A stretch of 64,000 bases of DNA from Psammoneis japonica (lineage: Eukaryota), in contig QPGO01000084.1 in NCBI GenBank assembly GCA_008632985.1, positions 186,001-250,000 on the forward strand, read 5' to 3'. How positions within the stretch are numbered: position 1 is the stretch's first letter; the number at the start of each line of letters is the position of its first letter. The notes under the pieces are model-generated. The model worked only from the letters and a program-made list of their open reading frames with translations. It was not told where the DNA came from and did no database searches. The translations under genes and the position numbers were made by a program. This document shows positions 1 to 54,764 of the stretch, piece by piece.

Positions 1-376
1 CTGTGAGAAGGAGAGCGCCTCTGTGCAATGCTCTGCTGCTGTTTTGTCTGCTGTCAACACATCTTTCTCTCCAGACAATGGCGCAGTTGTTGGCAATTTG
101 AACAATGACCCCATGTTTGGTTTTGATGATGATGATTCACCCCATCCTCCCCTTCCTGAAGCCCTTTTGAATCCAGGTCCATGACTCTCCTGTCAGCTCT
201 CCTGCCATTGGAGACATCTGTCCCCCCTTTTGTTCAACACTTGGGCCCCAATTTGTCTTGTTTTCTAACAATGCTGCACCTGCCCTTGGAAAGGACAGCC
301 CTGCAGATGTTCCTGATTTTGCCACAGCTCTGACTCTGGCTGTTGACGACGGGGTGCTTGGGATCCCCCTCTGACA

Positions 377-3963: not shown

Positions 3964-4100
3964 TTTGCAAAATTGCCAGCCAAATTCTTCAAGAGCTGCC
4001 TGGCTGCGGAGGTTTTCTTGGGAGCTGCTCTTTGCAAAATTGCCAGCCAAACTCTTCAAGAGCTTCCTGGCTGTGGAGGTTTTCTTGGGAGCTGCTCTTT
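3964..4100 (+). repeat. Tandem duplication, 2 x 67 bp
   Basis: tttgcaaaattgccagccaa...gggagctgctc repeated at 3964 and 4031. Confidence 0.85.
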
Positions 4101-6100
4101 CATTTTGCTGACAAGCTGCCATTGCTGGAGCTGACAATTTCTGAGCAGCATTTCAGCAACCAGCAAGTCTCGTCTCTCCTCTTGAAGAGCAGCTTGTTGC
4201 ACTTTTCACTGTGAGCACTGACTGGCCAGCAGAGTCCAAACACAGCTGGTGTTTGAGCTTCAGCTCTCTGCACTTCTGTGGGAGTTTCTGGTGGCAGCAA
4301 CAGATTGCTCATGTGATGGAGGCAACACTGATGCACCCCGTTGTTTCCAAGAAAAGGGGCTCTGGTTTTTGGAGACGAGGGGTGTGCGCACTTTTTGTTG
4401 CCCCACTTCATGAACACCAAGCCCAGCTTGTGCTCATCTGCACTGTGTTTTCTTCTTGAAGAGCTTGCAACAGCAAACAAGAGTGGGTTGAAGCTCAAAG
4501 TGCTCATCTGCATCCAACCACATTGCAGCACATGCTCTTTTCATCAGCTGGGTTGGTGTGTCACAAAAGCTGTTTTGAGACCGCGCTTCCAATCACATCA
4601 CAACACACAGGAGAGCCCTCTTGGTTGGTTGGGTTGTTGGTGGTGATCCATTGTTTTAGAGACAAAACAGTTGAAACAATGCAGCATTGGCATCGATGTC
4701 AAATTTCACATTTCCATGTCACATGGACTCGAACCAGCGTTTCATGGCTCTCTTTGTTTTTTCTCCCCTCTTTTTCTGCTCTTTTTTTTCGTGATGCAGA
4801 TGCAGGCCTACCGGTACAGTACACGGCACCTCTGACCTCTGCCGAAGTGGTGCTGAGAAGCAGGCTGTTGCCGTCGAAGGATCCATGCCCAGGCCTATCG
4901 CTTTTGCGCATGTCAAAATAGGAAAGACGAGCTAGTGAAAGAACTCGTATATTTCGGGCTCTTCGCTCACGGTGCAGGCGGCGACTGTATCCCGACTGTG
5001 CGTTTTGTTGACAGTTCGGAATTTGAAATGATGTTGCATCAGACATGCAGCAACAGTACGGACTTCTTGGCGACAATAACAGTGGAAGCGTCTTCACTAG
5101 ATGCACTCTACGCAAAGTCGTCCCCGAAGCAAGTATAAATCCAGAGCTCCAAATTTTGGACGAAGGGGAGATCATGCAAGCCGCTGGTGAGCAGAGCTAT
5201 GAAGAACTCATTGGGGATTCTCTATGACGGTGTCGCAAAAGTGAAGTAGATGAAGCATAGCGGTTCGTCAGCAACCTGATGTCGAGCCTTGAGAGCCGAG
5301 TAGAAGCTCAAAGTCGAGAGAAGAGGCAGAAGCTTATCGAAGCGCATTTGAAAATTAAAGCGTTGAAGATATGTTCCAGCAATCAAAACGCACTGTGGAC
5401 ATAAGGCTCGATACGCAAAGAATGTTACCATATTCGTCACAATTGCAGATTCAGAGACTGGAAAATCTGCAGCTAGCCCGAAAAGGGGCACAAGCAATTG
5501 TCGTATAACGTGCTGACTTGTAGTACGAGCGTCAACAACGGGGCGGGGGTCATCAAATCGATGTAAAGCCGGCAATGCCTCATGCACATCTAGCGAGGAC
5601 AATAGATAGACTGGGTTTCAAGGGGGGGGGGTCACCATTTACGACGTCAGCTGCAACAAATACTTGGAATCAGACCATCGTATGGAAATTGAATTTGTGT
5701 TGAGAAAAAGCAATTGTCATTTCTAATTAGAGGGGTTAGATTGGTATTCCCGTCACAAGTCTTTCGATGACGTGGGTAGCGAGCATCTTCCCGCTGGCCA
5801 AGCAAAGATCAAGCTCACTAGCAAACTTGCATACGAAACTTACGTCAAACAGAAGAAAATGGATGCTGGGAGAGATATCTCGAAAGTGGCGGATTGGTTT
5901 GATTATTTGTTCTGAAACGGAAGAAGATGACTCCGTGAAACATGTGCTCGGTAACATCAAGGCATCAGATGGAGCTGGGTTCTCTCTGCTGCATACTGCA
6001 GTGATGGGATGCAAGAATTGATGCACGCGCAGGATCGACCATATCAAGTCGCCGCTTGGTTCCATACTTGACGTCGGCCAAGGGTAGAGACCGAACTGTA

Positions 6101-6330: not shown

Positions 6331-7353
6331 TTAGGAGCTGTAGGAGTGGCGGTCCAAACAATCTTGAAGCTTCTTCCTCACCATGTTTGACTCTTGAATG
6401 TAGCGCTCTGTTTGGAAGATCTTCTTACATTTCTCGTGTTCCTTGTCTTTGACAGGAGTGGTGCGAGGGTTGACCAAAATGCCTGAGATGGGGAACACAC
6501 GAGCAGTGGCCTGACACACTCTGAACTGGAAGGAATAAGTCACATTGTCAGGGTTGGTGATTTGGGACGAGTGTTTCCAACCAAGGTTTGGCATCTCATC
6601 CCTTCCATCCAAGACAAACACTTGGCCAGTTTTCTGCTCAAATGCCACCTCTTTTACAACCTTGTCGGAGCCTTCCGGAACTCTTCCAAACACCAGCTCT
6701 TTGCTGTCTCCAAAGGTGACAATGGCCACTGGAGTGCCAGGAACTTGAGAGTTGTTTGGAGCAGGCATTCCAGTCTCCAAATCATACGCTACATCAGCAT
6801 GCCATCCCAGAGATTTCAGGACCTGGTTTTTTCTGCCGACCACAGTGTTGCAAGAGAAGTAAATTTTCACACTGACCAGATTGAAAGACATGCCTTGCAT
6901 TGCTGCCCGCCACTGCTCGTTTTTCTTCACTTCCAGGCTCAGCTTGTTGCAAATTTCAGTCATTGTGGGTGTCATGCAGAACAGAGGCTTGGTGTTTGGA
7001 TCCAGCCCCACAGATTGCTGCCCGCTGCCATTGGCGTAGCTTGTGCGAACCACAGAGTTGGGGTGCTCTTGGGTGCCGCCACCCACATTTGTGCCAAAGT
7101 AAATGTTGAATGCTGCTTTGGACATCAAAGCAGGCCTGGAGGGGTTGTTGATGGGAGCTTTTGGCGTGTCAACAATGCAATTTTCATTCACCTCCTCAAC
7201 CACTTTTTGCAACTTCTGTTTGTGCCACCTTTTCAGGCTCAATTCCATGGGGAGGAACTTTGAATGAAATTGTGACGTTGCACGGAGACTTTTCAGGAGG
7301 CTGCGGTTCTTGGCCTTTGCATCACCATCCCGCAAGAAAGGCTCGTTTCCCAT
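6331..7353 (-). CDS. AlkB-like 2OG-Fe(II) dioxygenase domain protein (~340 aa)
   Basis: Open frame from MGNEPF. Contains LGWHAD (HxD), PVAIVTFGDSKELVF, GQVFVLDG, WKHS (distal His) and YSFQFR, which matches the AlkB-type double-stranded beta-helix pattern. Confidence 0.65.
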   Translation of the reverse strand: MGNEPFLRDGDAKAKNRSLLKSLRATSQFHSKFLPMELSLKRWHKQKLQKVVEEVNENCIVDTPKAPINNPSRPALMSKAAFNIYFGTNVGGGTQEHPNSVVRTSYANGSGQQSVGLDPNTKPLFCMTPTMTEICNKLSLEVKKNEQWRAAMQGMSFNLVSVKIYFSCNTVVGRKNQVLKSLGWHADVAYDLETGMPAPNNSQVPGTPVAIVTFGDSKELVFGRVPEGSDKVVKEVAFEQKTGQVFVLDGRDEMPNLGWKHSSQITNPDNVTYSFQFRVCQATARVFPISGILVNPRTTPVKDKEHEKCKKIFQTERYIQESNMVRKKLQDCLDRHSYSS

Positions 7354-8361
7354 GGCGCCGTGACTTTTTTTGCGCAGAAATAAAAATATGAATGGCCTTC
7401 GAGCGAGTTGACGACGACTCCCTCGCTCGCGCGCCACGGGAATTGACAACTCATATGGTAATGTACGTGCTGCACCGGTACAGGATTTGTCATACCGGTG
7501 GGCACGGCAAACTTGCGTGCAGGCAGCAACTGTGACGGTGGTCCGTCTCCAAGTGGCCTCTTCTGATTGGCCCGCGCCGCCTGCTTCGTCATACGCAAAG
7601 CGCAAAACAACGCCGCCGTGCTGTGCGTCAGCGAAGTCGTAGCAATCATACCTACTTGTACATACGGAAGAACTACATGACTTGTCACACAGCTAATTTT
7701 TTCGTTTGTGTAGGATCTTCCATGTTTTATACGGCTGAGTAGAAGCGTACGAATTTTTTGTACCAGTGTCTTTTTTTGATGGATTGCTCGGGCCAGCTCC
7801 GCATCCAGGGTGCACAATGGCACAATGCGATGCATGGCAGAGCCACTGAGAAGCCATTCTCCATCAAGAGACATGATAGTGATGGATGCCCCCTATCCAC
7901 ATGGGCTGCGCTTTTGTGGACGTAGCATTGCATCCGTCTTGGTCGCCATCTGTTCCCATGGATTGGTGGACCAAATCTGAGGCACGAGTTCTCTTTGCAC
8001 TGCCAATTGCTCTGGGATTTTCTTTGCATTTCAAAGCCGTGTCATGTTCAATTTATGCAATTTTCCACCTTGAGCAGTGGGAATGCTGCGCATCAGCAAG
8101 AGACCAGCCAAGCTGGGTGTTCGATCTCAATGTGTTGACGATTAACACCTGCATGGATGAACACGCCAACCTGCGGAGTCGGCTTTATCAACGCAACAAA
8201 GACCATCAAGGAACAGTGTTCCTACGTATGCTTAGCGGTGGTATTTCGAACCTTTCGTCATGCCGTGTTGTTACATCATGCAATCCTTGAGTCCGGAATG
8301 GATGTTGGCATCGTGAATGCAAAGGAAATGCTTTATCGATGAATTAGATGACGATATGATG

Positions 8362-29283: not shown

Positions 29284-32089
29284 CTACTTCGACGACGTCT
29301 TCTTTCTCGGTATCCGTTGAAATAATGGTGGTTCGGAGCCAACATCTGAGCGGGGTCGCTTTAGCTCACGGGTGGGTGTCCCCGTCACAGCTTTCAATTT
29401 CTTCAATGACTCCTTGAGGATGTCTTCACAAGCCTCTGAAATCTCTTCAACAGGGCATGACTGGAGTGCAAAACCCAACTTTGCTTGATCTTGGCATGCT
29501 CGCGACTGGAAACGAGACATGTCCAAAGCACCGTCGAACTCTTCTGCGATGGCGGCCATTGTTCTGTACGCTCCTAATTGAGTCCTTGCAGAACACAAAA
29601 TAGTTCATTCCACGGAAGAAGGTATTGTACCGGTTTTGTGGGCCTTTTTTGCCGTCCAAAGCATAAGCGAGCGTTCTCATGAAGTTCTCCATGAATCGAA
29701 TCGTGAGATGAGTCTCTTTTTCGTCGCCGGTTCCAAGCTGCATCCGAAATGCCTCTTGAAGTGTTCGACCCATTCGATACATTTCAATCCCGTTGCACTT
29801 CTTGTTGTGATGCCCGTAGGCATACTTCCACAGCTTCTTGCTGGCGACAGAGTGATGGCAGATCGCGTTGTAGTCAAGCATCCACAAAGGCAGAATCCAA
29901 GACCTGCCATCATCCCAATGTGGAATGGACTCCTTCATCGCTCATCGCTCGTCCTGCGGGAAGCAGGTCCTTCGATTCTTTATTAAGAAGCGAATTAAAC
30001 GTGGTGACAACGCTGTAACCAGTCTGTGTTGGTTTTTTTGGCTGTTCCCGCCACACCTTGAAACAAAAATTAAGCTCCCCCCTGCATCGCTCTTCCCAGT
30101 CCTTCATTTGCGGCAGTTGCATCGGACACTCGTCTCTGTCCTTCGGGAATGTAGCGGGTGCTTCAATTTCTAAGTTGTCGTGTGTCATTTTCATCATTGT
30201 GCACAGCAATGAGCCAGCCGAGAAATGATCCTTGAGAGCGTCCGTCACTTGAACATTTTTTGAGGTTAAAAGAATTGTTGCCGCAGCCCCAAAGCAGCGC
30301 GCTTGGCGCGGAAACATCTCACAGGAAGTTTGAACTGAGACTGCCTGTAAAGACACGAGAACAGATTAAATGCCACAGTTGCGTGAGAACAATTTCTGAA
30401 GAAGACAATCTGACAACTGCTGATTCTTACCTGTGGCAGTGACAAGTTAAACTTCATAACCAAGAGCAAGGTGAAATGCCAAAATGCTTGACAGTGAGAC
30501 GTTGGTTCCATGTTGCACTCAGCTTTCAATGCGCCCAATCCCTCAATTCCATCAAAAGATTCAGACTTTTGCTCCACCATGGATGGGACCAAACGTTTCT
30601 TCCAGCTGTCCGAGAGTTCGTACGTTTTTACTGCCTCATTCACAAGGGGGGTCATGGTGTCCAAACACAGAAGAGAGTTGTCAACGGAAGCACATGTGCA
30701 GCCAACTGAGCCGCATCGCTTCTGCCCCCCATCAGTGACGCAAGAAGCAGACACCACTTCTGTGAGACCCTCTCTTGATGAATTCTTGTCATCACTGTGG
30801 CAGGCGCACAGCTTCCGGTAAAAGTTGCGGAGGAGCCGGATGGCCTCGGTTTTGTGGTTTTTCTTGCTCAGCTGCTGCGCAAATTCTTGGTGTCGTTCTG
30901 GGAATTCTTCGTCAGTCCAGATTTCCTGACACCATTTGGGGGCAACCCGACACACGATTTCTGTCACAAGTGCAAAAAATGACTCTGCGGCTTCAGCGCC
31001 CTTCCTTGTGTTGGGTCGAGATGCACCATCGGGACGTTTTTTTTCTCGCTGCATTTTGACAGTGTCCGTGTCTACATCCTCCTTGACACTGGCCTCGTTG
31101 CACGCATTGATCAATGTGTCCACCTTGTCCCAGTCAATTGAATGGATGGGATGATCTGGTGCAAAAGAATTTTGAATCCAAAGGAAACAATTAGAATGAT
31201 CACTTTGAATGTCATAGAGAGAGAACGCAACGCCAGATTTGTCATTCTTGAGAGCTTGGGCCAGATCCTTCAGAGTGACTTGACAGTGCGGCAAGTTTGC
31301 TGGTCTTGCCACATGCACTTGCAATGTTGCTTGGCATGTTGTGTGCATGCGCTCCACATGCTCCGCCCTTTGTTTTGGGGACAGTTCCCCCATGTTGTCA
31401 AGGACTTTGTTGCCATTGTTCTTGCGGCAGGAGTCGTCAGCCTCTTTGAAAATGAAAACGACATTGCACATTGATTCCTTGAGGAGATCTGGAGAATCCA
31501 ATGTGTCGTTGGCAAGTTCCTTCTTTGACACGCTGTTTGTGCAGTCACCCGTCATTGTTTTTGTTCTGTCATCACCCACCCCTGTGAACACAGGTGTTTT
31601 GCGCGAATCCATCTTGTGTTTCACCTTTGTGTGCGAGGCGGCAAGATTGGCTCTCAGCGCCGCCACTTCGACACCACACTGTGCCGCGGCATGAACACTC
31701 ACATGCTCTGCTCGGTTGGAGCTTCTTGCATTGCCACCATGGATGCGCTGGCTCTGATGAGAATTGCGTTGGCTGTCGCCCCGGTCAGCAGATGACACAG
31801 GGCTTCTGCGAGAAGAACTGGGACAGTCGGGCACAGAGACGGTGCCGCAGGGCCAGTTGCTTTCACCTTCATTGCCGTCCAAATGACCACACTGTTGCTG
31901 TTGGCTGTCGGCTGATGATGCTTCAAACTTCAAAGCGTCTGCGCCATGGTTGGCCCAAGTGTGGCTGTGCGCGAGGGCGCAGGGGTCGGTTGGTTCCTGC
32001 CGGATGCTCGTGGTGTGGTGCCGACCGGCACTCACTCGTGCAGCCTCCTTCTGCCCCTCATGTCTCCCACACCCTCTTGAAATCTTCAC
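29284..32089 (-). pseudogene. Large unknown protein, frameshifted, with an HxDxxN motif
   Basis: Consecutive minus-strand ORFs (30266-32089, 29910-30356, 29447-29938, 29284-29598) read as one protein-like sequence. Contains CHSDDKNS and RCGSVGCTC (RYGSVGYTR restored). Confidence 0.45.
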
Positions 32090-35007
32090 TCAGTTAAAAA
32101 CATGAATTTGTTGTTGGTGTGGAATGGAGTGGCTTTCAAAGCTGTGGTGTCACACGCCGCTGATGAGGGCGGGATTGAGAGCATCACTTTCTTGGAACTT
32201 TGTGCTCCTCTCTCACAATGAGAGGAGAACATTGGCGAGCAACACCGACATGCAACAGAGGTCAGTTTCCTTGTTGTTCCCGCTCAAACCTGCCCTCTGC
32301 CAGAGGAGACAACCCCGACAGCACTCACTGACCTTGTCCGAGTTCCAAAAAACAGATTCTCTCAAAAGCAATGCTGGTGATTTTGGCCAAACATCCGTTT
32401 GCACTTGTTTGTCGCAGCCCTGCTTCCAGCTGTGGTGTGTGCCCACTTTCAAGGTTCAGAGGCATTTGTCAGCCTCAAAGCAACAGAGGGGCACACCACA
32501 CTGCAGTGCTCTGGCTGTCTCCCATGTGATGCAAAACTGGCATGCACATGAGTGTTGTGGGCTGGAGCTTGCTGCAGACAGCCTTGACTTTGGAAGCTTT
32601 GAGAACCTTCTGGTGAATGAATCTTGAATCTTGCCCTGTGAGTGGCATCTCTGCAGTTGATGATTGGCCAGAAAATGTCAAAGAGCTGCATGTTCATCAA
32701 TTGACCCAATGGCAATGAAGAGTTGACAGTTTGCTGCTGCTGCAGAGTTGCTGTCTCAAAAAGATTTCTTTGGGTGCCGTGCCATCATCAATTTGACAGC
32801 TCTGGCTGAGAGCTGGTGGCAGCAGAGGGTGACAGAGTGCCAAAGGGCAGTTACGGGCAATGATGCAGCCAACTCTCCAAGCACCAGGGCTGTAATGACA
32901 CAAGCACTTGTGGAAGAGAATGAGAGGCAGAGATCTCAGAGAGATCTGCTCACATGTCTGAGATGTCTGGCCATCATCCACAAACAGTCTGTCCATTGTG
33001 CAATTGGTGGACAGACACCCTCCACCCTCCCCTGATCTGGAAGGAATGGCAGTGTCACAGATCTGAAATTGATGATGGCTGAGCCAAAAATCTAAAGACA
33101 AAGTCACTTGACACAACCAACAGAGCCACGGCTGCATTGCAGAGGGAGCAAAGCAGCTCATGGGCAACCTTTGCAATGCAGCATGACCTGTCCAATGGAT
33201 GAACATGCTTGCCATTGTGCAAAACAATGGAATTTCCAGAAACAGAAAACATTGGGGCCTTGAGTGAACTGGCACTGTTGTTGGCAACACTGGGGGTCCA
33301 TCACCAAACACAGCAGATGGCACACTGTCAAGCCCCACATCAGACACAGTGGAGTTGTCTGGAAAACATCATGGCTCTTGTTCAGAACTCATTTTGCTCT
33401 TGTCAAGAATCCTGTGTTCTTAACAAGTGCTCATCAATTGTGCACAAATCGATTTTAACAATCATTTCAACATGCCAAGTGGGATTTAACACTTGATGAA
33501 AATGACTCTAATTCTTTGTTCAATCTTGACAAGATTGCAACCACAATGATTTTAAAATCATTCAGCTCGCGCTCACAATTTTAATGCGACCTTCCAAGTG
33601 GGAAACAATTGTCAATGAAACTTCTTAACCAGGGTGCAATTGTGACTGCTTTGCAATGTTGTTCATTTCTGACAACTGCAACATTCATTCGTTGCATTAA
33701 GATGCTTGCACATTGGCTGTGTGTTTCTTGCAATGTGATTGTGCCAGCTGTGTTTTGTCATTTCTGCAGTGAACACATTTTTGCTTCCTGTTTCCTGCTC
33801 TTCCCTCCTTGGCTTTTTTCTGTCTCCTGCCTGTTCTCCCATGCCGCAGTGATGGCATGATGCTTCGCTCATTTTGCTGACCCTTGCACCCGCTCTTGCT
33901 CGCCATGCACAAAATCCCACAGTTCGTTCCGTGTCGTGACCTTGTCTCTTTTGCTCGTCATGCCAGATTGCCAAAGCTTTGCCTGCAAAGAAGAGAAAAG
34001 AGCTTGCAGCAGTTCAGAGCACCGCACATGTTTCATTTTTGAGCGGGCTTGTCTTGACAAAAACAGCGCTTCTGCTCACCTTTGCACGCAGCCATGTCTC
34101 TTCCATGTTTCGTGCCAGTTTGCCAAAGCATTGCCTGTTGCAAAGAAGAGAAAAGAGCACGCACCACATGAGAGCATTGCATTTGCATTGTTTCGAATGT
34201 GCTTTGCTCACCTTTGTGTGGCCCCTGCAGGGCTGTCTTCCCTTCCATCTCCCTTTGCATGTCATCAACATCGTGTCTGAGTTGAAAGATTGGCCAAAGC
34301 ATCAGTTGTTTGCATTGTTGCCCAAAAGGGCCACATTGTTGACACAAGACAAGCCTTTGCTCCCCAACCAAGGTTGTTGTTGGCTCTCCTGGGGCACAAT
34401 GGAGTCACCCAAGGGGCCAGCAAAAGACATCTGGGCACTGGCGCTGTCTGCAGAAAGCTCCCTTGCCTTTGCAGGTGGGGTGGTGGCTCCATCACCAAAG
34501 CAAGCTGATCAAATCAGAAAGAAAAGGGGCTGCACTGGCCCAAGACAAAAGGCTTTTCCTTCCCAACCACCATTGTGGCTGTCTCCTCCTTGACCCAACA
34601 GAGTCTCTTGTGCCCGTCCTCAGACAACTGAGTGCTTGCACTGTCACACAGATGGATCCCTTGTCTTTCTTGCAGGTTGAGCAAGCGATTTCCATGCCAC
34701 AGCTCGACCGACGCCGAGGCACACCCAACGGTGAGGATGCATCCATGTGAATGATTGGTTTCCGCAGGAACCTGTCAGTTAAAGGACGACAATGTAAAGA
34801 GACGATTTGCGCCGCTTTTGTGACATGCAATCTAATTTTTGTCATTTTGTTTTCCATCACATCCCGCGGAACGTCTGAAGACATCTCCAATCACGACTCA
34901 ACATCATCATGGATGCACAAGACAACATTTCTGTTGCTTCAAGTGCTGCGCCTTCGGAGCGCTGAAACTCGGACGACGCATTTTCACAGGGTGAAGAGGT
35001 TGACTTT

Positions 35008-37110
35008 GTGCTGACACAGAATGCATCGGATGCAGCCAATGCATTGTCTCAATTGTTTGGGGGGGGGGTGGCTCAAGAAAATGCTTCCGTGGAGATGGAG
35101 CCGCAAGCCCACCTTGCTGTCGGTGTCAACCGACAGCCACACATGGCAAGCCCCACCGAGGCTGCAATGTTCAATCCTGGCGCAGCAGCAAATTCGGGCA
35201 CAACCACTGTTCCAACGACCTTGCCAACAGCCAGCAGTCAGACTCTTGCCCTTGCCAAAGCTGTCATTGCCAAGGACAAGAGCGTCCTCAATGTTTCGGG
35301 TGAGGATCGCAAATTGATGGAAGCCACTGCAGGCCAAGAAACGACTCACCAACAAAAATCCTGCAACCTCGAGATGCGCTTTTTCAACACCATTCGAGAG
35401 AAAGGCGGAAACAAGATGCAGTGCCTTCTGGAGCAAGTGCCGACGGAAATGAGCGATGGTCTCCTCGTGGATTTTCGATTCTACAATGAGGTTGGCGGAG
35501 AGAAGAGTGAGCCAAAACGCCTTGTGCTGATGAAATGTTGCGACTTGGCATTCTTCTCTTGGAAAACCCATCCACCGGAGAAGCCCTTGAACCATCCACT
35601 TTTGGGCAACACATGGGGACGCTTTTTGGAAAACATTCTTCCATCGCAAAGGCACAAAGCATGAGCCAGTCGGGTGGGGCCAGTTGGTTGCGCACGTTTG
35701 GGTTCAATGCAGCCGTGCAACCAGCCACACCCTGCAGGAAGAGCTGTTGGTGGCGCACGAGCAGAAGCAACAAAGCACAGAACACAGCGTGGGTCAAAAC
35801 ATTGTAAAATGACGCAACAACAAGCAGCGAGAAGAAACCCAACTTGACCCATGAATGCAGCGCATGCATGTTGTCCAACCACTTCAAGAGTGTCTTGCAT
35901 TCCCAGCTTGCAGATGAGGGGACGGCATTTGCATTTCTTGCCCCATGGTGTTGTTGTGCGTCATCGTGTTGTTTGCGCGAAGAACACGGGATCTGTTTGT
36001 CCGACAGTGACTCTGTTTTGCTGACAGCAGATGTTTTGCTGTGTTCAATCTGCAGACATTTTGAGAAGCGCTTCGGGGAAACTCTGTTGGGACCGTCAAA
36101 TAGAAATTTTTTTCAAACAGATTCCACAGTTCTTTCGGGGTGTTCTGTCGCACTTTTGAATTGGTGTGCACACACATTGGAGGCACAAGCAAATTAAATG
36201 ACATGCAATGGCCTCAGAGACCAAAACAAATTTGTGTTCCATGTGGACCGTGTAGATTGTGTGCCGGCGTAAAATCCACCGCCTGTCAACTCCTCAGTGG
36301 CAATTCTGCATGTGTTCTGCTTGCACCTCACACACGCACACATGCCCACACCAGTCCAATGACCACACACACACGCGCGAGATGACTTCAAGAAAGGCTT
36401 CAACGGGAAAGGAGAGTTTGCCGATGACTGCAAGAAGAGGTGGAAGGAATTGCAAGAAAGTGATCCTGCCTTTGGAGTTGGGAAGAATGCCACAAAATTT
36501 GATTGAGAGGGCAACAAAAAGCTTCGGGCAAAAGTTGCGGAAGGCAGACTCAAGCCCTGCGAGGATCCCTCTCACTGTCAAGAGATGCTTGCGGTTTGGT
36601 TTGCTCGTGGCTTCCTTTTTCGTGGAGTGGCAGAGGTCTCCAAAGCTGTGTGGGACCAGTTCCATCGAGACATTGTTGGCGATGATCAATCCGAGTTCTT
36701 TGGCATGCAGCAACTCAACTGTGAGATTGATGTCGACAAAACACACCAGCCGTCATTGTCAAATCTGAAAGGACACACCGAGAAAGAGGGGCTCATTGAA
36801 TGTGCTGAGAACCCCCATGACCCGGTTTGCATTGTCAAGATTTTTGATCAGTTGCGGAAGTGGTCTCATCCTGATCAAGTTTGCATTTTCTGCGGCCCGT
36901 TGAGCAAGGTGCAGAAGCGAGAATGGGATCTCAAAAACCTGCCCTGCAAGTTCAACCCAAACAAGCCGTTGGGAAAGACTGCCATCGGCACGAGTGTGAA
37001 GCATGTTGCGCAGTTGTGTGAACTCAAGGACTGGAAACAGTGTGCCAACCATGGCAATTGCGCATGCGGTGTTTCGCTCATGATGGTTGCAAAGGTGTCC
37101 AAAAATGTCG
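35008..37110 (+). mobile_element. Crypton-like tyrosine recombinase remnant
   Basis: GFLFRGVAEV (first catalytic Arg), DKTH, DPVCIVK, PLGKTAIG and CANHGNCACGVS (YxNHGxRAYG restored; HxxR). Probably interrupted at ~35660-36380 and truncated at the 3' end. Confidence 0.55.
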
Positions 37111-37206
37111 CGTGGGTCACAGTTGATGCTTTGCAAAAGGAAGGAAAAACACAAAATCGTGTGGAAATGAATTCAATGTCACACGAGAGAGTGATTGGAG
37201 CTAATG

Positions 37207-43466: not shown

Positions 43467-43701
43467 ACTCTCCGGGTCCGATGGACGAGCCCGAAGACAG
43501 TGCTGACCCCTCCAGTGTCCTCGAAATGGAGGGCATGTACGCTGGTACCGGACTGGAAAAGACACAAAGCTGAGGCGCACTCCAAGAGACACGGCGCATG
43601 TCAGTGACGAGAGAAAACTACCCATACGATGTTGCAGGTGTCCCGCCTTTCTATGGTGCAGCAATCTTCTCCCAAATAAGTAGGAGTAGTCTCTATTTTA
43701 T

Positions 43702-43989
43702 GCAATGTTTTATTCTATTTTGCCGCATGGAGTTGACGAGTTTTTCCTCCAATCTTGTGATTGCTATATTGCTAAAATAACGCTGCTCCAAAAAGCAATG
43801 TCCTACAGCTGTCTTTTGTGAGACGCCTAACAGCAGTGCGGTAGCCCAACCCGTGGGAGTCTTGTGCAGGAGCAATGAGGCTTCGACACACTAAAGAATG
43901 TTCTCCATAAGGCGGTCCACTGCTCGAGTCTGTAGTAGAGTGCAAAAGTGCAGCAGTTAGAATGGCAACATTGTGCACAAATCAAAACA
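43702..43989 (+). repeat. 288-bp dispersed duplication, copy 1
   Basis: Matches 57357-57644 with 2 differences by eye. Confidence 0.95.
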
Positions 43990-44300: not shown

Positions 44301-45997
44301 CAGATCCAACTAGGTCTAACTTCGTGTCGACATATCTAATCGAAGTCAGTACGAGGTGGTGAGTTAAAATGGCGCTCCTCACGTTCCGTACAGAAGCTCC
44401 AAGCTTACCTACCTTCTCCAGGACTGTCTGAGTGGTGACGGAAACGCGTTAATGTTTGTAAATTTGAGTCCAACAACAGCGAGTGGCAATGAAAGTCTCT
44501 GTTTCTTGCGATTCATTGAGCTTGGAAAGGCGATCAAGCACATTGAATACTCCAAGTTGAGAAAGAATTAGTTCCGTTTGGAGAGAGGTAGGGGGGTTAT
44601 AAGGGAAACCGTTATTCTAAGAGCACGTACCGGTAATATGCAACACAGTTTTTTGTATCGTTTTCTTTGAAGTTCCGGCCTATCTCGTTTTTGATTTGTT
44701 TCTCTACAGAGAATGCGCCAGAACTTACGATCGAAGGTGATGATTCATAATGGAAATTGGATACCGTGGAATGCTATAGTACACTCGAGCCCAATCAGTG
44801 ACGCGACCGATGACGACCGAGCTACCACGCCACAGGACGCTAATGAGCCACAACTCGACAACCAACGCATGTGGAGAGGGGAGGTGCTTTGATGCAGTGG
44901 CAATGAAGGCATCTACGCACCCAGCGCCACCGTATGTGCTTGACTTGTGAAGAACGCCACTCTGTAGATTCGAGCCGACGTCCACTCTGATGGTTCTTCT
45001 TCCGCATCTCTTCTCGTCGTTGCTTTCGCTACTGTAGACAAAAAATACTGACGTCTTGATTCAGTACATGCTCACAAGGTTGCTGAGTAAAGTGCCTTTC
45101 GGGGGAAAGGCTGGGACTTGTGTCAGCTGAAAACAACGCGTCGTTGAATGCCCGCAAATGCTTGACAAGTTGAAGCTCCCTGTCGTCAATTGCATAGCTA
45201 GTGCGGCAGTACTGTCTGATGGTGCAGCACTCTCAGATGATGAATGGATACTCTCACCTGCATTGGTTCCCCAGATTCGAGCCCCCCCCCCCAATAAGCA
45301 TACGAATACAAATGACACCATTCGAGTCGCATTGTCCAGAAGCGTCAAATTTCCCATCCACGGTTCCAATAAGCCAATATCAACACGTACATCCGTTCCC
45401 AAATACTCATGACTTTGTATTCCGGTTCGTGATATCGTTTTGCATTAATAATAATGACATGGATTCTGAGCGCATAAAGGAATCGAGTACAAGAGACGGA
45501 AACTCAGCATCATTCAAAGGTCTTCCCAGCTTGCCACCCTTCTCAATCACAAACAAGACATCCTTGCGCAATTAGACCAACAGTTGCCTCAAAAGCAATT
45601 GACTATGTTTCATAGCCAGCCTTGAACTCTGCTAACTCATTAGCAGCAGCAATGGGTGCAGGGACAATGCGTAGCCGCGTTCTTGGCCAAGAGCTTGAAG
45701 CTGTCCGGCTCACACGTCCAATCATTTGACTTCAGACAGGATCAGCAAATCATCACGAGCGCCCAATCTGCCTCGTCGACGCCTGTCGTAGTACTTTGCA
45801 ATTGGCAATGATATATTTCACACCTGGCTTCTTGTAGCACATGTTCCCGTTGTAATGCAGACATTTCGGGACTGCCACATCAAGAAAAGTGGAAGCGTCG
45901 TCCTTCAACACCGTTCCAGTCGAGTCCGCGAACCACGTACTGAAGAATTGGTCGTGTGGAATGACACGGCACCGCTTACATTTTATTTAGGGAAAGG

Positions 45998-46231
45998 AGT
46001 CACGACTCAACGTCATTCTGGTCGCATCTCACGACTACAACCCAGACTCAGATTTTCTCTTCGAAATAATTAGCTCATCACAAAATCGATTCAAACAGAA
46101 GCAACGACATTCGTCATAATTTCTAGACAACGACTTTCAACAAGCGTCTGTTTACCTCTGTCGCTATTCATATTGCTACCAACCTCCGAGGTCTCATCCA
46201 TCCTACTCAGCTGCAGGACTGCATCTCGACT
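45998..46231 (+). repeat. 5' LTR
   Basis: AGTC...GACT; aligns without gaps to 53006-53239. Confidence 0.95.
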
Positions 46232-46393
46232 GGTCACAGAGACCAATTTGCACGTTGACGAGAGCTCCTGACCGAGTCATCGTCACGGACGCTTTCGGTT
46301 TTTGATTTTGAAGCAAACCCGGGAAATAGCTGAGTCTCTCTCGCTTCTCTCGTCTTCACTCTAACAAGAACCTCCCATGCTGCACTCTCTGTC

Positions 46394-49300
46394 ATGGCTG
46401 CCATCGATCCAGCTGTTCTGGCGAAGGCGTTTGCCGATGCAATGGCAGCCAACGCCGCGGCGACCGCTCCTCCAGCTCCAACCAAGCCGTCACGTGGTGG
46501 AATTCACCCAACCCACGGGGTTTACATTGGTGGTTCCAAACTCAACAACAACTGCGAACAATCCAACGACAGAACCTGCCGACTCGCCTCTCAGCGCCGT
46601 CATCCCAAGGCTCTCGACTCGACAGAACGATCTCTCCGCGATCAACAAGCTTCCGCAATGACTTCCAAGTTCAACAGTCGACTTGAGATTTCGGACGGTC
46701 CCATCAACGAGCTTGACAAGGACCATTTCGTCAAGACCGTTCGAGATCTGGCAGAAGCCCACGGTCAGCAGACGTTCTGCCATGCAAAGGACAGCGACGA
46801 CAAGGTTCAACACATCTTCGACCATCTTCACGAGTTTGCTGTGACCGATCTCGTGAACGAGTGCACGGTTGGGAAAGCAGCTGCCGATGATGCCAAGCAC
46901 CACGAGATCGAGCTCGACGACATCGGGCTCTCTCAACTTCTCGTTCACTCAAGAATCACTGATGCTTTTCGCGAGAAAATCGAGACCAAGTTCAACCATC
47001 TTTCGGACTGCCAAGACTACCCTGGATCTGTTCCATTCATGATGGCTCTCGACACTTGCAATGCCAGCGCTCTAACGGACATTGAGACGGCCAAGAAGCA
47101 GCTAGAAGACCTCAGTTTGGCCAACCATCCCGGCGAGGATTGCACGGACTTTGCTGCCGAAGCTCTTCGCATCGCGAAAATTGTGCAGACCGACTGCGCG
47201 CTTCCGGCAAACACAAGCTCCAAGCTGCTCCACAAGATCTCCTCCACGTCCTCTGAGTGCTTCAATCGCCGAGTCTACAACAAGCTCGACGACGTCAAGG
47301 CCATGGAACGCAAGCACCGCCTCAAGAATCCTGCTGACATCGTGTCCGACAGCGATTGCAAAATGCTCGGACCGGTCGGCATCATTGCGTGGATTCAAGA
47401 GCAACACAACGAACTCGTGAAGGATGGGGAATGGCCTGCATTAGCAGCCAAGCTACCCGAGAGTAATCTTTCGACTACGGATGACCCTGGGAAGACGAAG
47501 CACTGTCATGGTTGCGGTCTCGAGGGGTGCACCAAGAAGACGTGTCCGAAGTGCAACGCCAAACCGCCGCGCGACGACACTCCTCCCAATCCGCCGCCTG
47601 CAGACGACCCTTCCAAGAAGAAGAGGCGACCCATCGCTGTCTGGCGCACTAAATTTGACGGAGAAACGAAGAAGGATAAGAGTGGCAAGGAATGGAAGTG
47701 GTGTGCCACGTGCAAGGCGAAGGGTGCCGACAAACCTGGAATCCACCAGAAGCACTCTACCGCGGAACATGCCGACGACCGCAGGCAACCTCCCAAGGAG
47801 ACCCCAGCCGGGAATTTGTCTTCCGTTGCTGACCCGGATAGTGGCGTGCCCATGGGTCCGCCCGCTCAGACTGCCAAGGCACCAGAGGGAGACGAATCCG
47901 ACCCCAACGAGCCAGTTTTCACAGGAATGTGGTGCGCGGCTACGGATCCCGTCACCGACCCGGATTTCTGTTCCGCCCCAGTCACTGCTGCAATTGTTGT
48001 TACTCCGGCTTCTTCGGCCGAGAAGGAGAGCGATGCAGTCGTTAGTGCTGAGGTGGTTTGCATCGAAACGAGCCCACCTGTGCTCACCTCAGTCGTGGAT
48101 CCAGTCGTGTCTCCCACAGTGGTTGAGACTGTCACTCCCGAAGACGCCGATGACTTCTACGAACACTCCGACGCTTTCTCTACCTTTGAAAACGAACCAC
48201 CGGCCATTGAGTTGTTTCCGGCCTCGAAGCTGTGCTCCATCAAGCATCCAGATGAGTTCTTTGACGCTCCCGCACATTTGACGGATGTGCTGTCAGACGA
48301 CACCAAGTTAGATCTCATCCTTGAACACGACGTACACTTTGAAGACGCATGCTGCGACTTGCCTCCGTGTGTTGCGTGTCGTGGCTTCGATTTCTACGAT
48401 CCAGAGGTCCTGGATGCGGATGATTGTCACGAGGACGTCGAAGACGAGCCCACTTCGCGTCGCTCACTCTTGGGTCGAGTCAAGCTGTTCATGTTCTGGC
48501 TCGCCGCCATGTTTTGGGAAACGGCACTGCATCTTTGCTTTGCTCCGATCCCATGCATCCCTCGAGCTCTACGCCGCCAGCGCAAACTCCCAACTTTGCA
48601 CGGGTTTCCAGCCTCCTGGATGGTCCCATCCGTTGCAGTGATGGTGTGGTCAGCAGTTCACGCCGGTCAACAGCCCGAGCATCCATTCTCGAACGCACCA
48701 AGTCGTTTTTCGACCGCTGGCTCTCAAGTCCACCACATTGTGGAAGAGCTAGATGACCGGATAGTGTTAGATTCGGGGTCACTGTTCGAACATCACAGGA
48801 TCAAAGGCACGCAAGTGCTCGCCGAGTTTGTCGCGCGCCATCCGTCACACGCACTGAGCACTCGTCTCAAGGCCTGCTGGGAGAGCCCAGAAGCAGCTGA
48901 ACGGTCTGATGCGACAGACGAATCAGCCTTCTTTGATGCCTGTGAGGAACTGGAACCTCTCGACGACCAGAAGCATTTCTTTGACGCTCTTGAGGACTTC
49001 AGCCCGGATTTCTTCCGGTTTGACGAGCTCTGTCTGCCGCATCACATCGTGGACACCACCCATTTTCAAGATCCTGTGGAACCATTGGAGGAAGCAGGTG
49101 TTAGACCAGTCGTCCACAACACCTCCACCATCCAACTGCTCACCGGACAATCACAAGCCGACCTCCTTGCATCCGATCCGCAGGCTCTCATCGGTCTGTC
49201 AGACGAGGCTCTCACGGTCGTCATGGACACTGGTGCAACATTAGCCATTGCCCCCGATGAAGATGATTTTACGGGGCCCATGACTGTTCCCAAGAAACCC

Positions 49301-52300
49301 TTGCAGATCAATGGGATTGCCAACGGTCTCACCATCCAGGGCACCGGTCCGGTTGCGTGGGTGTTCACAACGCCGAGTGGGGCTGCCATCCAACTGAACA
49401 CCATGGCATGCTGCGTCCCTGGAGCCCGTCAGCGCCTGCCATCGCCTCAACGCCTCTTCAACGAAGAGAAGGGGGTGCGTGGGAAGCATGAGGGCAATGA
49501 AACCACTTTCCGTTTACATGTTGACGGGACAGGCAAGTTGGTCGTGCCACATCATCCATCAAGCCACTTGCCTGTTGCATCGATGACCAAGGGCGTGTCT
49601 GCCGCTCCTCAAGTGAGCCTTCAGATCCTTAACGAGGAGAATCAAAACCTCACGGCAGGCCAAAAGCTTCTTCTCGAAATGCACACCCGTTTTGGCCATT
49701 TGAACTTTGGTCGCGTCCAAGCACTTCTCCGCGCAGCTCCGTTCCTTTTGAACCGTTTCAAGTCCGCAGCGAAGTGTGACCACCCAAGATGCGAGGCATG
49801 CAAACATGCTAAAGGTCACAGACGCTCTCTTGGATCTGCTCACAAGTCGACAGTCCCTGAACGCGACGGGGCCCTTCGAGCTGACCATCTTCGACCGGGT
49901 CAGGCTGTCAGCGTTGATCATTTTGAGTCGCACCTTTTAGGCCACACCTTCGACTCTTGTGGCAAAGCCACGTCCAAGCAATTCAAGGGCGGTTGCATCT
50001 TTGTCGACCACGCCTCTGGCTGTGTCCAGGTCGAGCACCAACTGGGTTTCTCCGCTGTTGAGACGATGCGCGCGAAGCAAGCGTTTGGGAAACATGCTTT
50101 GGACCACGGGGTCATCGTCCAAGAATTTCTTGCCGATGGTGGCGCTTTCAAGGCCAACGCTTTTGTACAACACACGCGAGATCATGAAAAATGTCTCCGT
50201 TTTTGTGGAACCAACGCCCATCATCAGAACAGCGTCGCAGAGCGGGGCATCCGCAGCATCTCCAACATGGCGAGAGCGATGTTGCTTCATGCATCAATGC
50301 ACTGGAAGGGGGGAATTGACAGCTCCCCATGGCCCATGGCAGTTTCCCATGCCACGCATGTCTACAATGTCACCCCAAATTCCAAAGGATGTTGCCCAGC
50401 GGACATTTTCACCGGTTCGACAGTGCCAAGACATCGGTTGCGCGACATTCACACATGGGGATGTCCAGCGCACGCACTTGACCCGACCCTCGCTTCCGGG
50501 AAGAAGCTCCCGCGTTGGGAGCCTCGCACTCGTCGCGCTTTGTTCATGGGACTCAGTGCCATCCATTCCAGTGAGGTTCCTTTGGTCCTCAATCTTCAAA
50601 CTGGAAGTGTTGCACCTCAGTGTCATGTGGTCTTTGACGATCTCTTCACTGCCGTGCCATCAATCGAGAGGGAGACGGATCCACCTGATCACTGGGAACA
50701 CTTGTGCCTCAACCAATCGACATGCATCCCTCTGGAGAAGGATCAGGCAGTTCATTCACACGATGAGTGGCTCACCCCTCCAGAGCGTCAACGCAAAGAA
50801 CGAGAACTGGCCAGAGCAACACGCATTCGCGGGCATTTTGAGCCCACTCCATCGATTGCTGTGCCGGATTCACCCACTTCTCGCGACGACGTTGCCGATC
50901 GAGTCGCACCTGCGACTCAGCAGCCAACGCCACCAGTCCCACCTGCGACTCAAGCTCCTACAGACTCTACGGACTCTGCGCCAATTCAGCCACCTGAACC
51001 TCAAGACAGTGATGGACTTCCGCCACCCGAAGCGCCGACGGAACCAACAGCTCCTCCCCCAGTCGAGACACCTCCTGTGACGAATCCAGAGGGAGCGCCA
51101 GGGCTGCGACGGTCTTCACGGTCAACCAAGGGACAGTTCAACTCTGCCAAGTTTGTAGATGAGGTCCACTTCAGCTCCGTCGAGGAAATGCCGCTGCCGA
51201 TCGGACACGAGGCTCAACTGGCGCATCTGGCGACTCTCGAGACGGATTTGGACAGTGGTGCCATCAATGTCGGCGATCCACGAGCCCACGCAGCTAGCAA
51301 GAAAACCAAGGACCCTGACATGCCTTCGTTGCACAATGCTCTGAAAGGTCCGGACGCCGACGAATGGATCAAGGCGATGAAAATTGAAGTCAACGCACTC
51401 ATGCATCGTCGAGCCTGGAAAGCAGTCGAGCGTCAGCCGCACATGAATGCACTTCCAGGCACATGGGCACTAAAGCTCAAGAGACTCCCAGATGGAACCC
51501 CTCTCAAGCACAAGGCCCGATGCTGCGTCCGCGGTGATTTGCAGAAAGAAGGAGTCGACCACTTCGAAACCTGCGCGCCGGTTGTGCAACGGTCCAGCAT
51601 CCGCCTCATGCTCACTGCGGTGTTAAAGGAGGGATGGACCACACGACAGGTGGACTGCACCACAGCCTTTTGCCAAGCTGATGTCGCCGAGGAAGTTCAC
51701 ACAACACCGCCGAAGGGATTTGCGCCAAGGTCGGGACTCAATGTGGTTCTCAAACTTTTGAAAGGACCACACGGCCTAAAACAGTCTCCCAAGGGCTTCT
51801 ACGAGAAGTTACGAGCTGGTTTAACCGAGCGCGGATGGGTGCCTTCAGCCACAGATCCCTGTTTGTATTTCAAAGAGGGAATGATGTGTGTGGTGCACGT
51901 CGACGACACCGTTTTTGCTGGAGCTTCAGCTGAAGCTCTAGAAGCCGAAACTCGCAAGTTAGGAGTCTCCGACGACGAACATCGCCACGCATTTGAACTT
52001 AGAGACGAAGGAGAAGTCGGCAACTTTCTCGGCATCAAGATCGAAAAGCTCTCCGAGGGTTGATTTCTGCTCACTCAACCCGGTCTAATTGACAAGGTCC
52101 TACGCACCGCACAGATGCAGGATTGCAATGGAGCATCTGCTCCAGCTCTGCCTGCGGCTGTTGGTGCCGACACGGACGGCCCACCTTTTGATGAACCCTG
52201 CGATTGTCGCTCAGTTGTTGGAATGTTGATGTGCTTGGCAGCGAACAGCCGGCCAGACATTGCACATGCCACACATCAAGCAGCTCGATTCTCGTGTGCA

Positions 52301-52984
52301 CCCCGAGCGTCCCACGCTGCTGCAGTGAAGCGGATGCTCCGATGCCTCAAAGCAACTGCTGCTGAAGGTCTCATTCTCAAGCCTGCGCAAGATCATCGAG
52401 TTGATTGTTGCGTCGATTCTGACTTCGCGGGGTCATTTGGTGTGGAAGATGGTCAAGACCCAGTTTCTGTCAAGTCCAGGACTGGATGCCTTGTCTGCTG
52501 CGCCGGCTGCCCGCTTGTCTGGGTGTCCAAGCTGCAGACTCTTGTGGCATTGTCGACTGTGGAAGCGGAATGTGTCGCACTTTCTCAAGCCATGCGCGAT
52601 CTCATCCCCATTCGTGAAGTTCTCAAGGAGCTCAACCACCACGCACTCGGAAAGTCTGACCGCCAAAACCCAATCACGACTCACTCCAAGGCTTTTGAGC
52701 TCGCAACCCAAGGCACCGATGACTCGCCTGTAGAGCAGAATGTCCTGCCTGCGTCCGTTGTGTGCGAAGATGACTCCGCGTGCCTCAAGTTTGCACGCAT
52801 GCCCAAGTTGTCTCCGCGAACCAAACACATCGGCATCCCGCACCACTGGTTTAGGACTAAAGTCGAGCAATTGGAGATCGACATCCAACCCATCAGCACT
52901 CTAGAGCAACTGGCCGATCAGTTCACGAAGGGACTGCGGACCGATGCGTTCCGCACGGCTGGAAAGGCTCTCATGGGCTGGCAA
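46394..52984 (+). pseudogene. Copia gag-pol polyprotein, hypermutated, one nonsense codon
   Basis: Zn knuckles, VMDTGA protease, HTRFGH..CEAC, integrase D-D-E region, RT and RNase H all lie in a single frame. TGA at 52061-63. The probable natural stop after LMGW now reads CAA (52982-84). Confidence 0.92.
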
Positions 52985-53005
52985 GCTCTCTCGGTTGAGA
53001 GGGAG

Positions 53006-53239
53006 AGTCACGACTCAACGTCATTCTGGTCGCATCTCACGACTGCAACCCAGACTCAGATTTTCTCTTCGAAATGATTGGCTCATCACAAAATCGATTC
53101 AAACAGAAGCAACGACATTCGTCACAATTTCTGGACAACGACTTTCAACAAGCATCTGTTTGCCTCTGTCGCCATTCACATTGCTGCCAACCTCCGAGGT
53201 CTTGTCCATCCTGCTCAGCTGTGGGACTGCATCTCGACT
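53006..53239 (+). repeat. 3' LTR
   Basis: Follows the PPT; contains no TA dinucleotide. Confidence 0.95.
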
Positions 53240-53649
53240 AAAGGCGCTTGGATTGCAAAAGGTGGCAAGGCATCCTAGATCCACAACACACACAGTCCCC
53301 GCTTCTCCCAGCGCCCGTCTCTCGATGCACGGTCCAAACCATGTTTCATCGACAACGCTCCAAACGCCCGCGAGACAACGAAAGACTTGTCAAGCCTTGG
53401 ATCAAAAGACGGTGATTTGTTTCGGAGACTGACTGTGTCGACGAGGAGTTGCTGTTGCTGCCAGAAGAGTCGGCAGTCGACTGAAAGAAACGAATGACAG
53501 AGATCTTACCACACAACATGCATTGGTTAGGGAAACAACATCCAAAAAATAGACTAATCCCCATCTCGCTTTAAATCATCAGACCTTGTGACAATCCACT
53601 TGAGCAAAAAACACCACATCAATTCGAGGAAGGCTTCTTTTTCTTTTTT

Positions 53650-53780
53650 CACTTCTTCTTGGAACACTGTTGGATCCAATGACCAGACATTCCGCACAAA
53701 TCACAGACATGGCCGTCCGGTGGAGTAGATACCTTGCGTTTGCTGTTGCTTGCGGTCGCTTCTGCTTCGCTCATGCTCTC
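53650..53780 (-). pseudogene. CCHC zinc-knuckle gene fragment
   Basis: PPDGHVCDLCGMSGHWIQQC. Confidence 0.55.
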
Positions 53781-54764
53781 ATGGTGTCGCCATCGAGTCT
53801 CGAGTCTCGAGTTGCGGTGATGAGCACGTGTGCTGTAGAGTTGCGAGGTCTGAGGTCTTCTGAAAAAACCGTTGGACCTCGCGAAAGAACCGTTGGACCT
53901 CGCTGAAAAGGCATGCAGACCTCGCGCGGATCGCTCATTCGTTCGTATCCATACCCTGGCGCCCAGCGCACACCAGACACCATGACGAGCACCATCGGAC
54001 GCAACGCGTCCTCTCAGGATGGCACAGCATCGGTCTCCACTACTTGTCCATTTCAAGGAGATATGACTCACAATGTGATGAATCATCAGTGGTTAAAAAT
54101 GGGCTGGTGGAGATCGTAAGCTAAGAAAAAACAAGACCGAAACTGCGAGGTATCTTTTTTGTCGTGATTTGTAATCCTGCGTCAACATTGAACATTGGTC
54201 GTACAAGTATTGGTGCCGTATGATCATCTTTGTCAATACTAGTTCGAAAGATGATGGATATCTTGTTGGTTAATGCCGTGGAGGTGGTCCGGAGCGTGAA
54301 GGCAAAAAAATCAGTAAGAGGCGCTACCATCGCTTATCATCGCATCATCTGGAGTAGAGAGCCCTATCTTACCGTGAACATTGAACACTCGAGTTCCTAC
54401 TACTACTTTCTACTACTACTGTGTTTATTCACGGCGGCGCAAGTGGGGACTTGTTCGCAAGGAGTGTTGACACGGTGCTTTCCAACAAGTCGCTGATAGA
54501 CGTCCTTGGAAGATTTTTCCGTGGACACAGCAGGTAGAGGTTTGCGCGGTTGCAAAACACGTGGAAGACTTCTTGATCGGAATATTGGTTCTACACTGAT
54601 CAGAGCGCCCGAGACTACATCGTGAAGCATCCGAAGCGATTTCTTGATGCTTTCGATGCTTTGGTTCCAGGAGCATACAAGGTATGCACGCTCGTTTGTA
54701 CCGCTTCTTCCCCCAAAAATCCCTCGTCGAACATGCTGATGCACGTACGGTTCTCTCAATTATG

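Follow-up and report, generated by a model that had tools for sequence, protein, structure and literature searches.

The stretch analysed here, called the window below, comprises 64,000 nucleotides of the diatom Psammoneis japonica (contig QPGO01000084.1, positions 186,001 to 250,000), and its central feature is a Copia-type retrotransposon at 45998–53239 from which the dinucleotide TpA has largely disappeared. Two direct repeats of 234 bp, offset by 7008, form its long terminal repeats (LTRs) and are bracketed by a 5-bp target-site duplication (TSD), AAAGG (Table 1). The gag-pol frame between them runs through 2227 codons without a frameshift. Its only stop, at a position where the other copies of the family have C at a depth of 2994/3056, arose by a CGA to TGA change at a CpG. 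With an RVT_2 reverse transcriptase, an LTR pair, and a 5-bp TSD, the sequence places the element among the Ty1/Copia LTR retrotransposons, where it is CoDi-like, the assignment to the CoDi group being putative. RVT_2 is the only domain that passed Pfam in the window copy, while the relatives carry PF13976, PF07727, and PF22936, and the Y-x-D-D (YVDD-type) catalytic motif reads HVDD. A protein search with the element gave 292 matches among 7998 candidates; the best identities among the 120 matches listed were 57–63%, with no element copy above 63%, and the named relatives in that list come from the diatom Fragilaria crotonensis. A metagenome scan for further copies gave only relatives at 31–36% identity, and a scan of viral contigs found none. 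The element nonetheless belongs to a multicopy family: in three public runs of one sample, used as Logan contigs (2968 contigs; run codes include X1 and X2), depth is 3000–8000 over the element versus ~250 in its flanks.

The two LTRs differ at 15 nucleotides that fall in 13 dinucleotide sites, and all 15 differences are transitions, with no insertion or deletion. Every one of the ten TpA in the 5′ LTR reads TG (seven sites) or CA (three sites) in the 3′ LTR. At two further sites (46195–6 and 46214–5) the LTRs have CA versus TG, and at one (46145–6) CG versus CA. In total, 14 of the 15 differences involve TA or putative TA sites; the chance of at least ten of the 15 falling on the 20 TpA bases among 234 is 4e-9 (hypergeometric). 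CpG numbers 13 in the 5′ LTR and 12 in the 3′ LTR, 12 being common to both. An earlier sequence-only reading of this locus had reported 13 sites, ten of them TA, no indels or transversions, and 12 shared CpG, and every count was correct on recount. It had also read the two CA/TG sites as consistent with independent hits on one ancestral TA. Read by eye, positions 46153–4 and 46165–6 in the LTR, and 46237–8 just past the 5′ LTR, have all three forms among the window LTRs and the other copies, a pattern that fits independent hits on an ancestral TA. The LTR pair alone cannot give the direction of change, and outgroups are therefore needed.

The reverse polarity would make the 3′ LTR ancestral, the TpA of the 5′ LTR having arisen by C-to-T change at CpA/TpG. 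Two sequences carry no direction by themselves, and fungal repeat-induced point mutation (RIP) does make TpA from CpA. The first outgroup is provided by proteins. We aligned the gag-pol translation with 60 relatives (FFT-NS-2) and examined the 660 columns that reach ≥80% conservation. Of the 2227 residues of the element, 8 are tyrosine (0.36%) versus 3.09 ± 0.32% in these first 60 relatives, and the lowest value among the 120 relatives listed is 1.94%. Cysteine stands at 3.10% versus 1.82% and histidine at 4.76% versus 3.33%; the sum of the three residues is the same in the element and its relatives, the gain of cysteine and histidine equalling the loss of tyrosine. At the 29 columns with a conserved tyrosine, the element has cysteine 12 times, histidine ten times, phenylalanine three times, tyrosine once, and another residue three times, whereas each of the 60 relatives put through the same test shows zero to one change to cysteine and zero to three to histidine. 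Of the 18 columns with a conserved cysteine, 17 are unchanged in the element, as are 23 of the 26 with a conserved histidine, and none has become tyrosine. Since conserved tyrosine turns into cysteine or histidine and never the reverse, the direction is from TA to TG/CA. The 109 substitutions at conserved columns, sorted by codon, comprise 24 TA>TG, 17 TA>CA, 5 cases of CpG decay, 14 other transitions, 24 transversions, and 25 multi-step changes. No conserved tyrosine has become arginine, and hence no TA>CG is found at these columns.

The same protein data bear on a selective origin of the pattern. Avoidance of UpA is widespread in RNA viruses and mRNAs, and an element under selection against UpA/TpA, perhaps as a way to evade a nuclease, might lose the dinucleotide. 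Such selection would hardly destroy conserved and catalytic residues, as in the change of Y-x-D-D to HVDD, and the changes also occur in the non-coding LTR and in the host flank. The probability that we give to this explanation is negligible.

The second outgroup is an allele without the insertion. In X2, a contig of 654 nt runs from 45992 straight into 53240, carries one AAAGG, and represents the pre-insertion site; it has no difference from the window over 45792–45992 and 17 differences over 53240–53692. In X1, the shared left-flank contig ends at 45997, which fits the presence of both insertion and empty alleles. Taken over longer flanks, the empty-type haplotype differs from the window once in 498 nt on the 5′ side (45500–45997) and 17 times in 453 nt on the 3′ side (53240–53692). 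At seven of the 11 listed 3′-flank differences (53291, 53293, 53462, 53512, 53514, 53588, and 53592), the window has CA or TG where the empty allele has TA; at two others, the window has TG or CA and the empty allele CG. Host flank DNA has thus been changed; no editing that precedes integration could reach it, so the process works on the chromosome once the element is in place. Both a TA to TG/CA direction and a DNA-level action after integration had been proposed from the sequence: the tyrosine columns, the empty allele, and the other copies agree on the former, and the mutated 3′ flank supports the latter. The RIP direction is rejected: the empty allele has TA, and the most decayed domains of the window are without TpA at ~49% G+C, so that we regard a RIP-like polarity as extremely improbable.

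Editing of RNA or cDNA by an ADAR- or APOBEC-style enzyme, later fixed by retrotransposition, is met by the same evidence. Edited retroelement copies are known in animals, and ADAR prefers a 5′ U. Against this origin, host flank DNA is mutated, the two strands are hit about equally (24 TA>TG versus 17 TA>CA), and editing of the RNA genome would leave the two LTRs identical. It is very improbable in our judgement.

The locus also has a second, far more divergent empty form (45509–45992 and 53276–53409), with 19–25 differences and 10–13 gaps per 200–310 nt at a depth of 40–55. At least three haplotypes or homeologues of the insertion region are therefore present in the sample.

The public runs show the empty allele, the diversity of the family, and real TA/CA polymorphism, and they do not confirm the window copy letter for letter, LTR calls included. 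Several observations weigh against our interpretation at this point. X1 holds only 0.49 of the sampled words of the stretch, the window letter is absent from all contigs at 26 of the 29 listed interior places, and over 53294–53650 only empty-type letters occur in X1. Two of the 11 listed flank differences are transversions, and part of the flank divergence is thus ordinary haplotype difference. The search for public runs listed no RNA run for the stretch. The library types of the runs are unrecorded, 40 of the 412 variable places in the public contigs and 11 of the 17 flank differences are listed, and the filter drops some contigs. Where window letters do occur, they do so at single-copy depth only: 49240 (40/2294), 52061 (62/3056), and 53291/53293 (66/175). 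The expectation that raw reads would support the differences was thus upheld in part: the polymorphism at 53291 and 53293 is present in reads, while the window copy itself is not recovered letter for letter.

These observations give some room to an assembly artefact, in which a modified base at TpA in silenced DNA was misread as G or C by a long-read base-caller and the true sequence is TA. Among the 412 variable places, 329 of which are transitions, the public contigs mostly have T or A where the window has C or G (C>T 99, G>A 90), and the low share of words recovered would fit as well. Six points speak for real mutations. First, miscalls on mixed strands should give some TA>CG, and none occurs at 12 LTR sites or 29 tyrosine columns. 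Second, the frameshift-free frame argues for an accurate consensus. Third, compared with the runs, the window copy carries transversions and non-TpA transitions of its own, so it represents a different copy or strain state. Fourth, TA and CA alleles both occur in the reads at 53291 and 53293, at depths of 109 and 66. Fifth, CpG has also been lost from the older domains, where TGA stops are numerous. Sixth, the process is real in the alga Bigelowiella natans (B. natans), where it was measured from Illumina mutation-accumulation lines (bioRxiv 10.64898/2026.01.13.699255). Weighing both sides, we find an artefact improbable.

The affected domain has a definite shape. In the interior of the element (from 46232 on), CpG rho is 0.93 versus 0.17 for TpA, and the loss of TpA is therefore faster than CpG decay. 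The 3′ flank has a TpA rho of 0.24 over 53240–54000 versus 31 TpA (rho 0.58) in a 5′ flank of equal size, and TpA density is normal again by ~54200. Within the 5′ LTR, none of the nine upstream TpA is affected, and two of three putative ancestral TpA in the last 45 bp are now CA (p ~0.045, calculated by hand). The domain is thus shifted to the 3′ side, sparing the 5′ LTR and the 5′ flank and reaching 0.4–0.8 kb into the 3′ flank. TG and CA outcomes are balanced in codons (24:17), which implies action on both strands. These data agree with the sequence-only reading, which had described a double-stranded mutator that outruns CpG decay. No CG outcome is found at the 12 LTR sites or the 29 tyrosine columns. 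In short, the process is post-integration, TpA-specific, strand-symmetric, domain-confined, and faster than CpG decay, and each hit removes its own target.

The sparing of the 5′ LTR can be read in two other ways. In one, hypermutation is real and the 5′ LTR was supplied by gene conversion or recombination with an unmutated copy, so that no domain boundary lies in it. Ectopic conversion between LTRs is generally common, and the depth of the family shows many copies. However, the same asymmetry is found in unique host DNA (1 difference in 498 nt versus 17 in 453 nt; 31 TpA versus 11), and both CA/TG sites are confined to the final 40 bp of the LTR, as expected of a boundary there. We consider conversion clearly unlikely. 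In the other, the hypermutated domain would coincide with the transcription unit of the element, beginning at the transcription start in the 5′ LTR just downstream of the TATA-like stretch 46164–46175 and running through the 3′ LTR into a read-through flank. A co-transcriptional or RNA-guided adenine deaminase would then tag mobile DNA for destruction, as an old system common to diatoms and chlorarachniophytes within SAR (stramenopiles, alveolates, and Rhizaria). This idea draws on the 5′ LTR pattern (0/9 upstream versus 2/3 in the last 45 bp) and on the older domain at 30500–37200, whose edge is graded on the side downstream of its minus-strand frame and sharp on the other. The giant-virus insert of B. 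natans, reported as transcriptionally silent (bioRxiv 10.64898/2026.01.13.699255), tells against it. We put it forward tentatively and think it unlikely.

The TpA that survive reveal a sequence preference. The 56 TpA that remain in the element have A on their 5′ side in 5 of 112 half-sites versus 901 of 3270 in host DNA (chi-square p 8e-10), and in the older domains it precedes retained TpA in 2 of 66 half-sites. As retained TpA are rarely preceded by A, ATA/TAT is the preferred target. The retained TpA are also patchy over 46232–53239, with TpA-free gaps of 495, 596, and 630 bp versus a mean spacing of 123 bp, and the process may act in processive tracts.

Duplicated host DNA keeps its TpA. 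A 1058-bp tandem duplication in a host frame, 98.4% identical, retains 33 TpA, and a 291-bp dispersed repeat, 99% identical, retains 15, so duplication alone is not the trigger; that duplicated host DNA is untouched also argues against a RIP-like polarity. The tandem duplication consists of the repeats 38946–40003 and 39471–40528, with a period of 525 bp, inside an 1188-aa frame at 38303–41869 (+) that has a weak AGAO-like N2 match, and its 17 differences include transitions and transversions without TpA bias. The dispersed repeat lies at 43699–43989 and 57354–57644 and might represent either a solo LTR or some small non-autonomous element. Within the part of the 3′ flank that is thinned of TpA, a frame at 53652–54092 (−) has a weak zf-CCHC_2 zinc-knuckle match (E 9.5e-6, below the Pfam cut-off) and might be a remnant of another element.

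Table 1. Features of the retrotransposon and of the TpA-poor domains in the window.
Feature	Position	Strand	Basis or remark
Left TSD, AAAGG	45993..45997		Empty-site contig passes from 45992 to 53240 with a 5-letter overlap
5′ LTR, 234 bp, 10 TpA (rho 0.55)	45998..46231	+	Only the last ~40 bp seem affected (CA sites 46195 and 46214)
Copia-type gag-pol frame, 2227 codons, tyrosine strongly depleted	46394..53077	+	RVT_2, E 3.4e-29
Sole in-frame stop (TGA) of the gag-pol frame	52061..52063	+	C at 52061 in nearly all other copies
Purine run adjoining the 3′ LTR, candidate polypurine tract	52997..53005	+	Sequence; function predicted
3′ LTR, 234 bp, 0 TpA	53006..53239	+	LTR alignment
Host 3′ flank with right TSD copy (53240–53244), TpA loss extending inside	53240..54000		11 TpA; differences from the empty allele
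Older domain, TpA rho 0–0.09, CpG 0–0.28, TG/CA rho 1.6–2.1	1..4500		Dinucleotide scan
Small TpA- and CpG-poor patch	6400..7380		Dinucleotide scan
Older TpA-poor, CpG-reduced domain	30500..37200		Right edge sharp (0 TpA in 36271–37201), left edge graded (~29400–30600)
607-aa frame in older domain, uncharacterised family	30266..32089	−	Tyrosine 0.66%, cysteine 4.6%, histidine 4.3%

The Copia element is one of four TpA-depleted domains in the 64 kb, in which host genes and host duplications keep a TpA rho of 0.45–0.85. The two older domains and the small patch have a TpA rho of 0–0.1, CpG of 0–0.7, and TG/CA of 1.5–2.1, at a G+C content of ~49%; in the older domains, TAA and TAG are nearly absent and TGA is abundant. 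We interpret the older domains as putative relics of mobile DNA at the end state of the process, with no TpA, little CpG, and an excess of TG/CA. Similarity to Copia was found in none of them (0 of 185 tblastn hits fell outside the element), and a Pfam scan that covered 118 frames in the window detected no domain of a mobile element there. For the 607-aa frame in the second older domain, 38 relatives were found (best E 3e-44), and Pfam gave no match. It is rich in cysteine and histidine, its tyrosine content is well below the 1.7–5.4% of its relatives, and at five conserved-tyrosine columns it has histidine twice and cysteine, tyrosine, and phenylalanine once each. An Atlas search and a PDB profile search with this frame gave no match; in PHROGs, one of four relatives gave one marginal match (E 7.7e-4) over a 33-residue stretch. 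Across the family, some His/Asp/Asn and Cys positions are invariant and the consensus of the alignment contains an H-x-D-x-x-N block; the frame could encode an enzyme of an undescribed mobile element.

Elsewhere in the window, an intron-split gene for B12-dependent methionine synthase lies at 8891–10825 (+), and the best named matches of its exon 10373–10825 are to Skeletonema (80%), Phaeodactylum (78%), Mediolabrus (78%), 'Stauro...' (78%), and Corethron (72%). Only diatoms are among these named matches, which makes the host a diatom or something very closely related, as opposed to Bigelowiella. An intron-split gene for the largest subunit of RNA polymerase (Rpb1 domains 1 and 2) is found at 22553–23864 (−). 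Open frames at 59413–63260 (−) have IQ calmodulin-binding motifs and diverged ~290-bp repeats at 70–77% identity. A search with a helicase-like host frame found no homologues.

We think it quite probable that a Copia element inserted recently and that a local, DNA-level process then turned most TpA of the domain into TpG or CpA. In this model, the Ty1/Copia (CoDi-like) element would have entered a diatom chromosome of which the allele without the insertion persists. After integration, the process would convert most TpA in a domain that begins ~40 bp before the end of the 5′ LTR, spans the interior and the 3′ LTR, and fades 0.4–0.8 kb into the host 3′ flank. Each hit would be an A:T to G:C transition on either strand of the palindromic TA and would destroy its own target, so that CG never arises. 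TpA preceded by A (ATA/TAT) would be converted most readily, duplication of host DNA would be no trigger, and the older relics would show the end state. The most likely chemistry would be the deamination of adenine, where it follows T in a T-A context, to inosine. The enzyme would be ADAT/TadA-like or have another deaminase fold, and chromatin or small RNA would guide it to mobile DNA that is silenced. The U33-A34 substrate of ADAT/TadA enzymes resembles this context. Modification of thymine followed by mispairing may be an alternative, the target being palindromic.

A signature of this kind has been described in B. natans. In its mutation-accumulation lines, 231 of 302 nuclear single-nucleotide mutations lie in giant-virus and virophage regions, 230 of these 231 are A>G or T>C, all stated to be on TpA, and reverse-transcriptase and DDE domains are over-represented among coding sequences depleted in TpA; as a candidate enzyme, the authors put forward an ADAT2-like adenine deaminase (Mettrop et al., bioRxiv 10.64898/2026.01.13.699255). 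The likeness is close: in both cases the changes are nearly only A>G or T>C, fall on TpA to give TpG or CpA, and occupy domains of foreign DNA, and the long-term trace is a loss of TpA with a gain of CpA and TpG. Here, transitions account for 15/15 differences of the LTR pair, and TpA was the target at 10/10 LTR sites, 22/29 tyrosine codons, and 7/11 listed flank differences. On the TpA and TG/CA thresholds of the B. natans type, segments 1–4000 and 31001–37000 fall within the range on both counts, whereas the young Copia element does so for TpA (0.08–0.29) and falls short for TG/CA (1.11–1.41), the TG/CA value being a mean of two ratios that may differ from the formula of the preprint. The two cases also differ. 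B. natans is a rhizarian chlorarachniophyte and the present host a diatom, a stramenopile; its measured targets are giant-virus and virophage inserts, in contrast to an LTR retrotransposon whose LTR pair and empty allele act as internal clocks; and its rates are experimental, whereas ours are deduced from sequence.

Literature searches found no report of TpA hypermutation in diatoms, and in two diatom transposon papers (PMC2806351 and 10.1101/2025.10.24.684338) a term search came upon no reference to hypermutation, dinucleotides, or deamination. The earlier suggestion that no such system had been described in diatoms thus stands for diatoms, with the qualification that the signature itself was already described in the chlorarachniophyte by the 2026 preprint. 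The diatom case adds a new lineage and a new class of target to an already described signature and is not a new kind. A term search of the preprint text gave no hit for 'trinucleotide', 'flanking', or 'diatom'; relative to that text, the bias towards ATA, the reach of the process into the host flank, the sparing of the 5′ LTR, and the loss of CpG alongside TpA appear to be new details. The direction given by the empty allele and the independence from duplication are also new here.

Comparison with better-known systems sets the process apart. Like fungal RIP, it inactivates mobile DNA by dinucleotide-specific transitions that can leak into the flanks. RIP, whose enzymes are cytosine methyltransferase-like, turns CpA into TpA and lowers G+C, the opposite of the diatom process, and it is triggered by duplication, in contrast to the untouched tandem duplication in the window. 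APOBEC3 and ADAR likewise direct deaminase-type hypermutation against retroelements, and ADAR and TadA/ADAT favour a 5′ U/T before the edited A. However, the substrate of APOBEC3 and ADAR is cDNA or RNA prior to integration, and a single strand is edited, whereas both strands and the host flank are affected here. Finally, decay of CpG through 5-methylcytosine also turns a palindromic pyrimidine-purine step into TG/CA and accompanies TpA loss in the older domains, but it explains only 1 of the 13 LTR sites and 5 of the 109 conserved-column substitutions.

The finding has consequences for the annotation and dating of transposons. With 14 of 15 LTR differences of the TpA type, dating by LTR divergence would overestimate age ~15-fold in such genomes. 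Hypermutated copies also lose TAA and TAG stops, and the long open frames that result may be mistaken for intact genes by gene callers. At the same time, an LTR pair together with an empty allele offers a natural clock for a process that far outruns CpG decay. Hypermutation of A:T to G:C directed at TpA was first reported in 2026, in one alga and without an identified enzyme. A comparative search for the enzyme now becomes possible, looking for genes common to both lineages and absent where transposons keep TpA, and candidates can be tried in diatoms, which are open to genetic engineering. That a second case comes from a distant group of ecologically dominant algae suggests that this form of genome defence is widespread.

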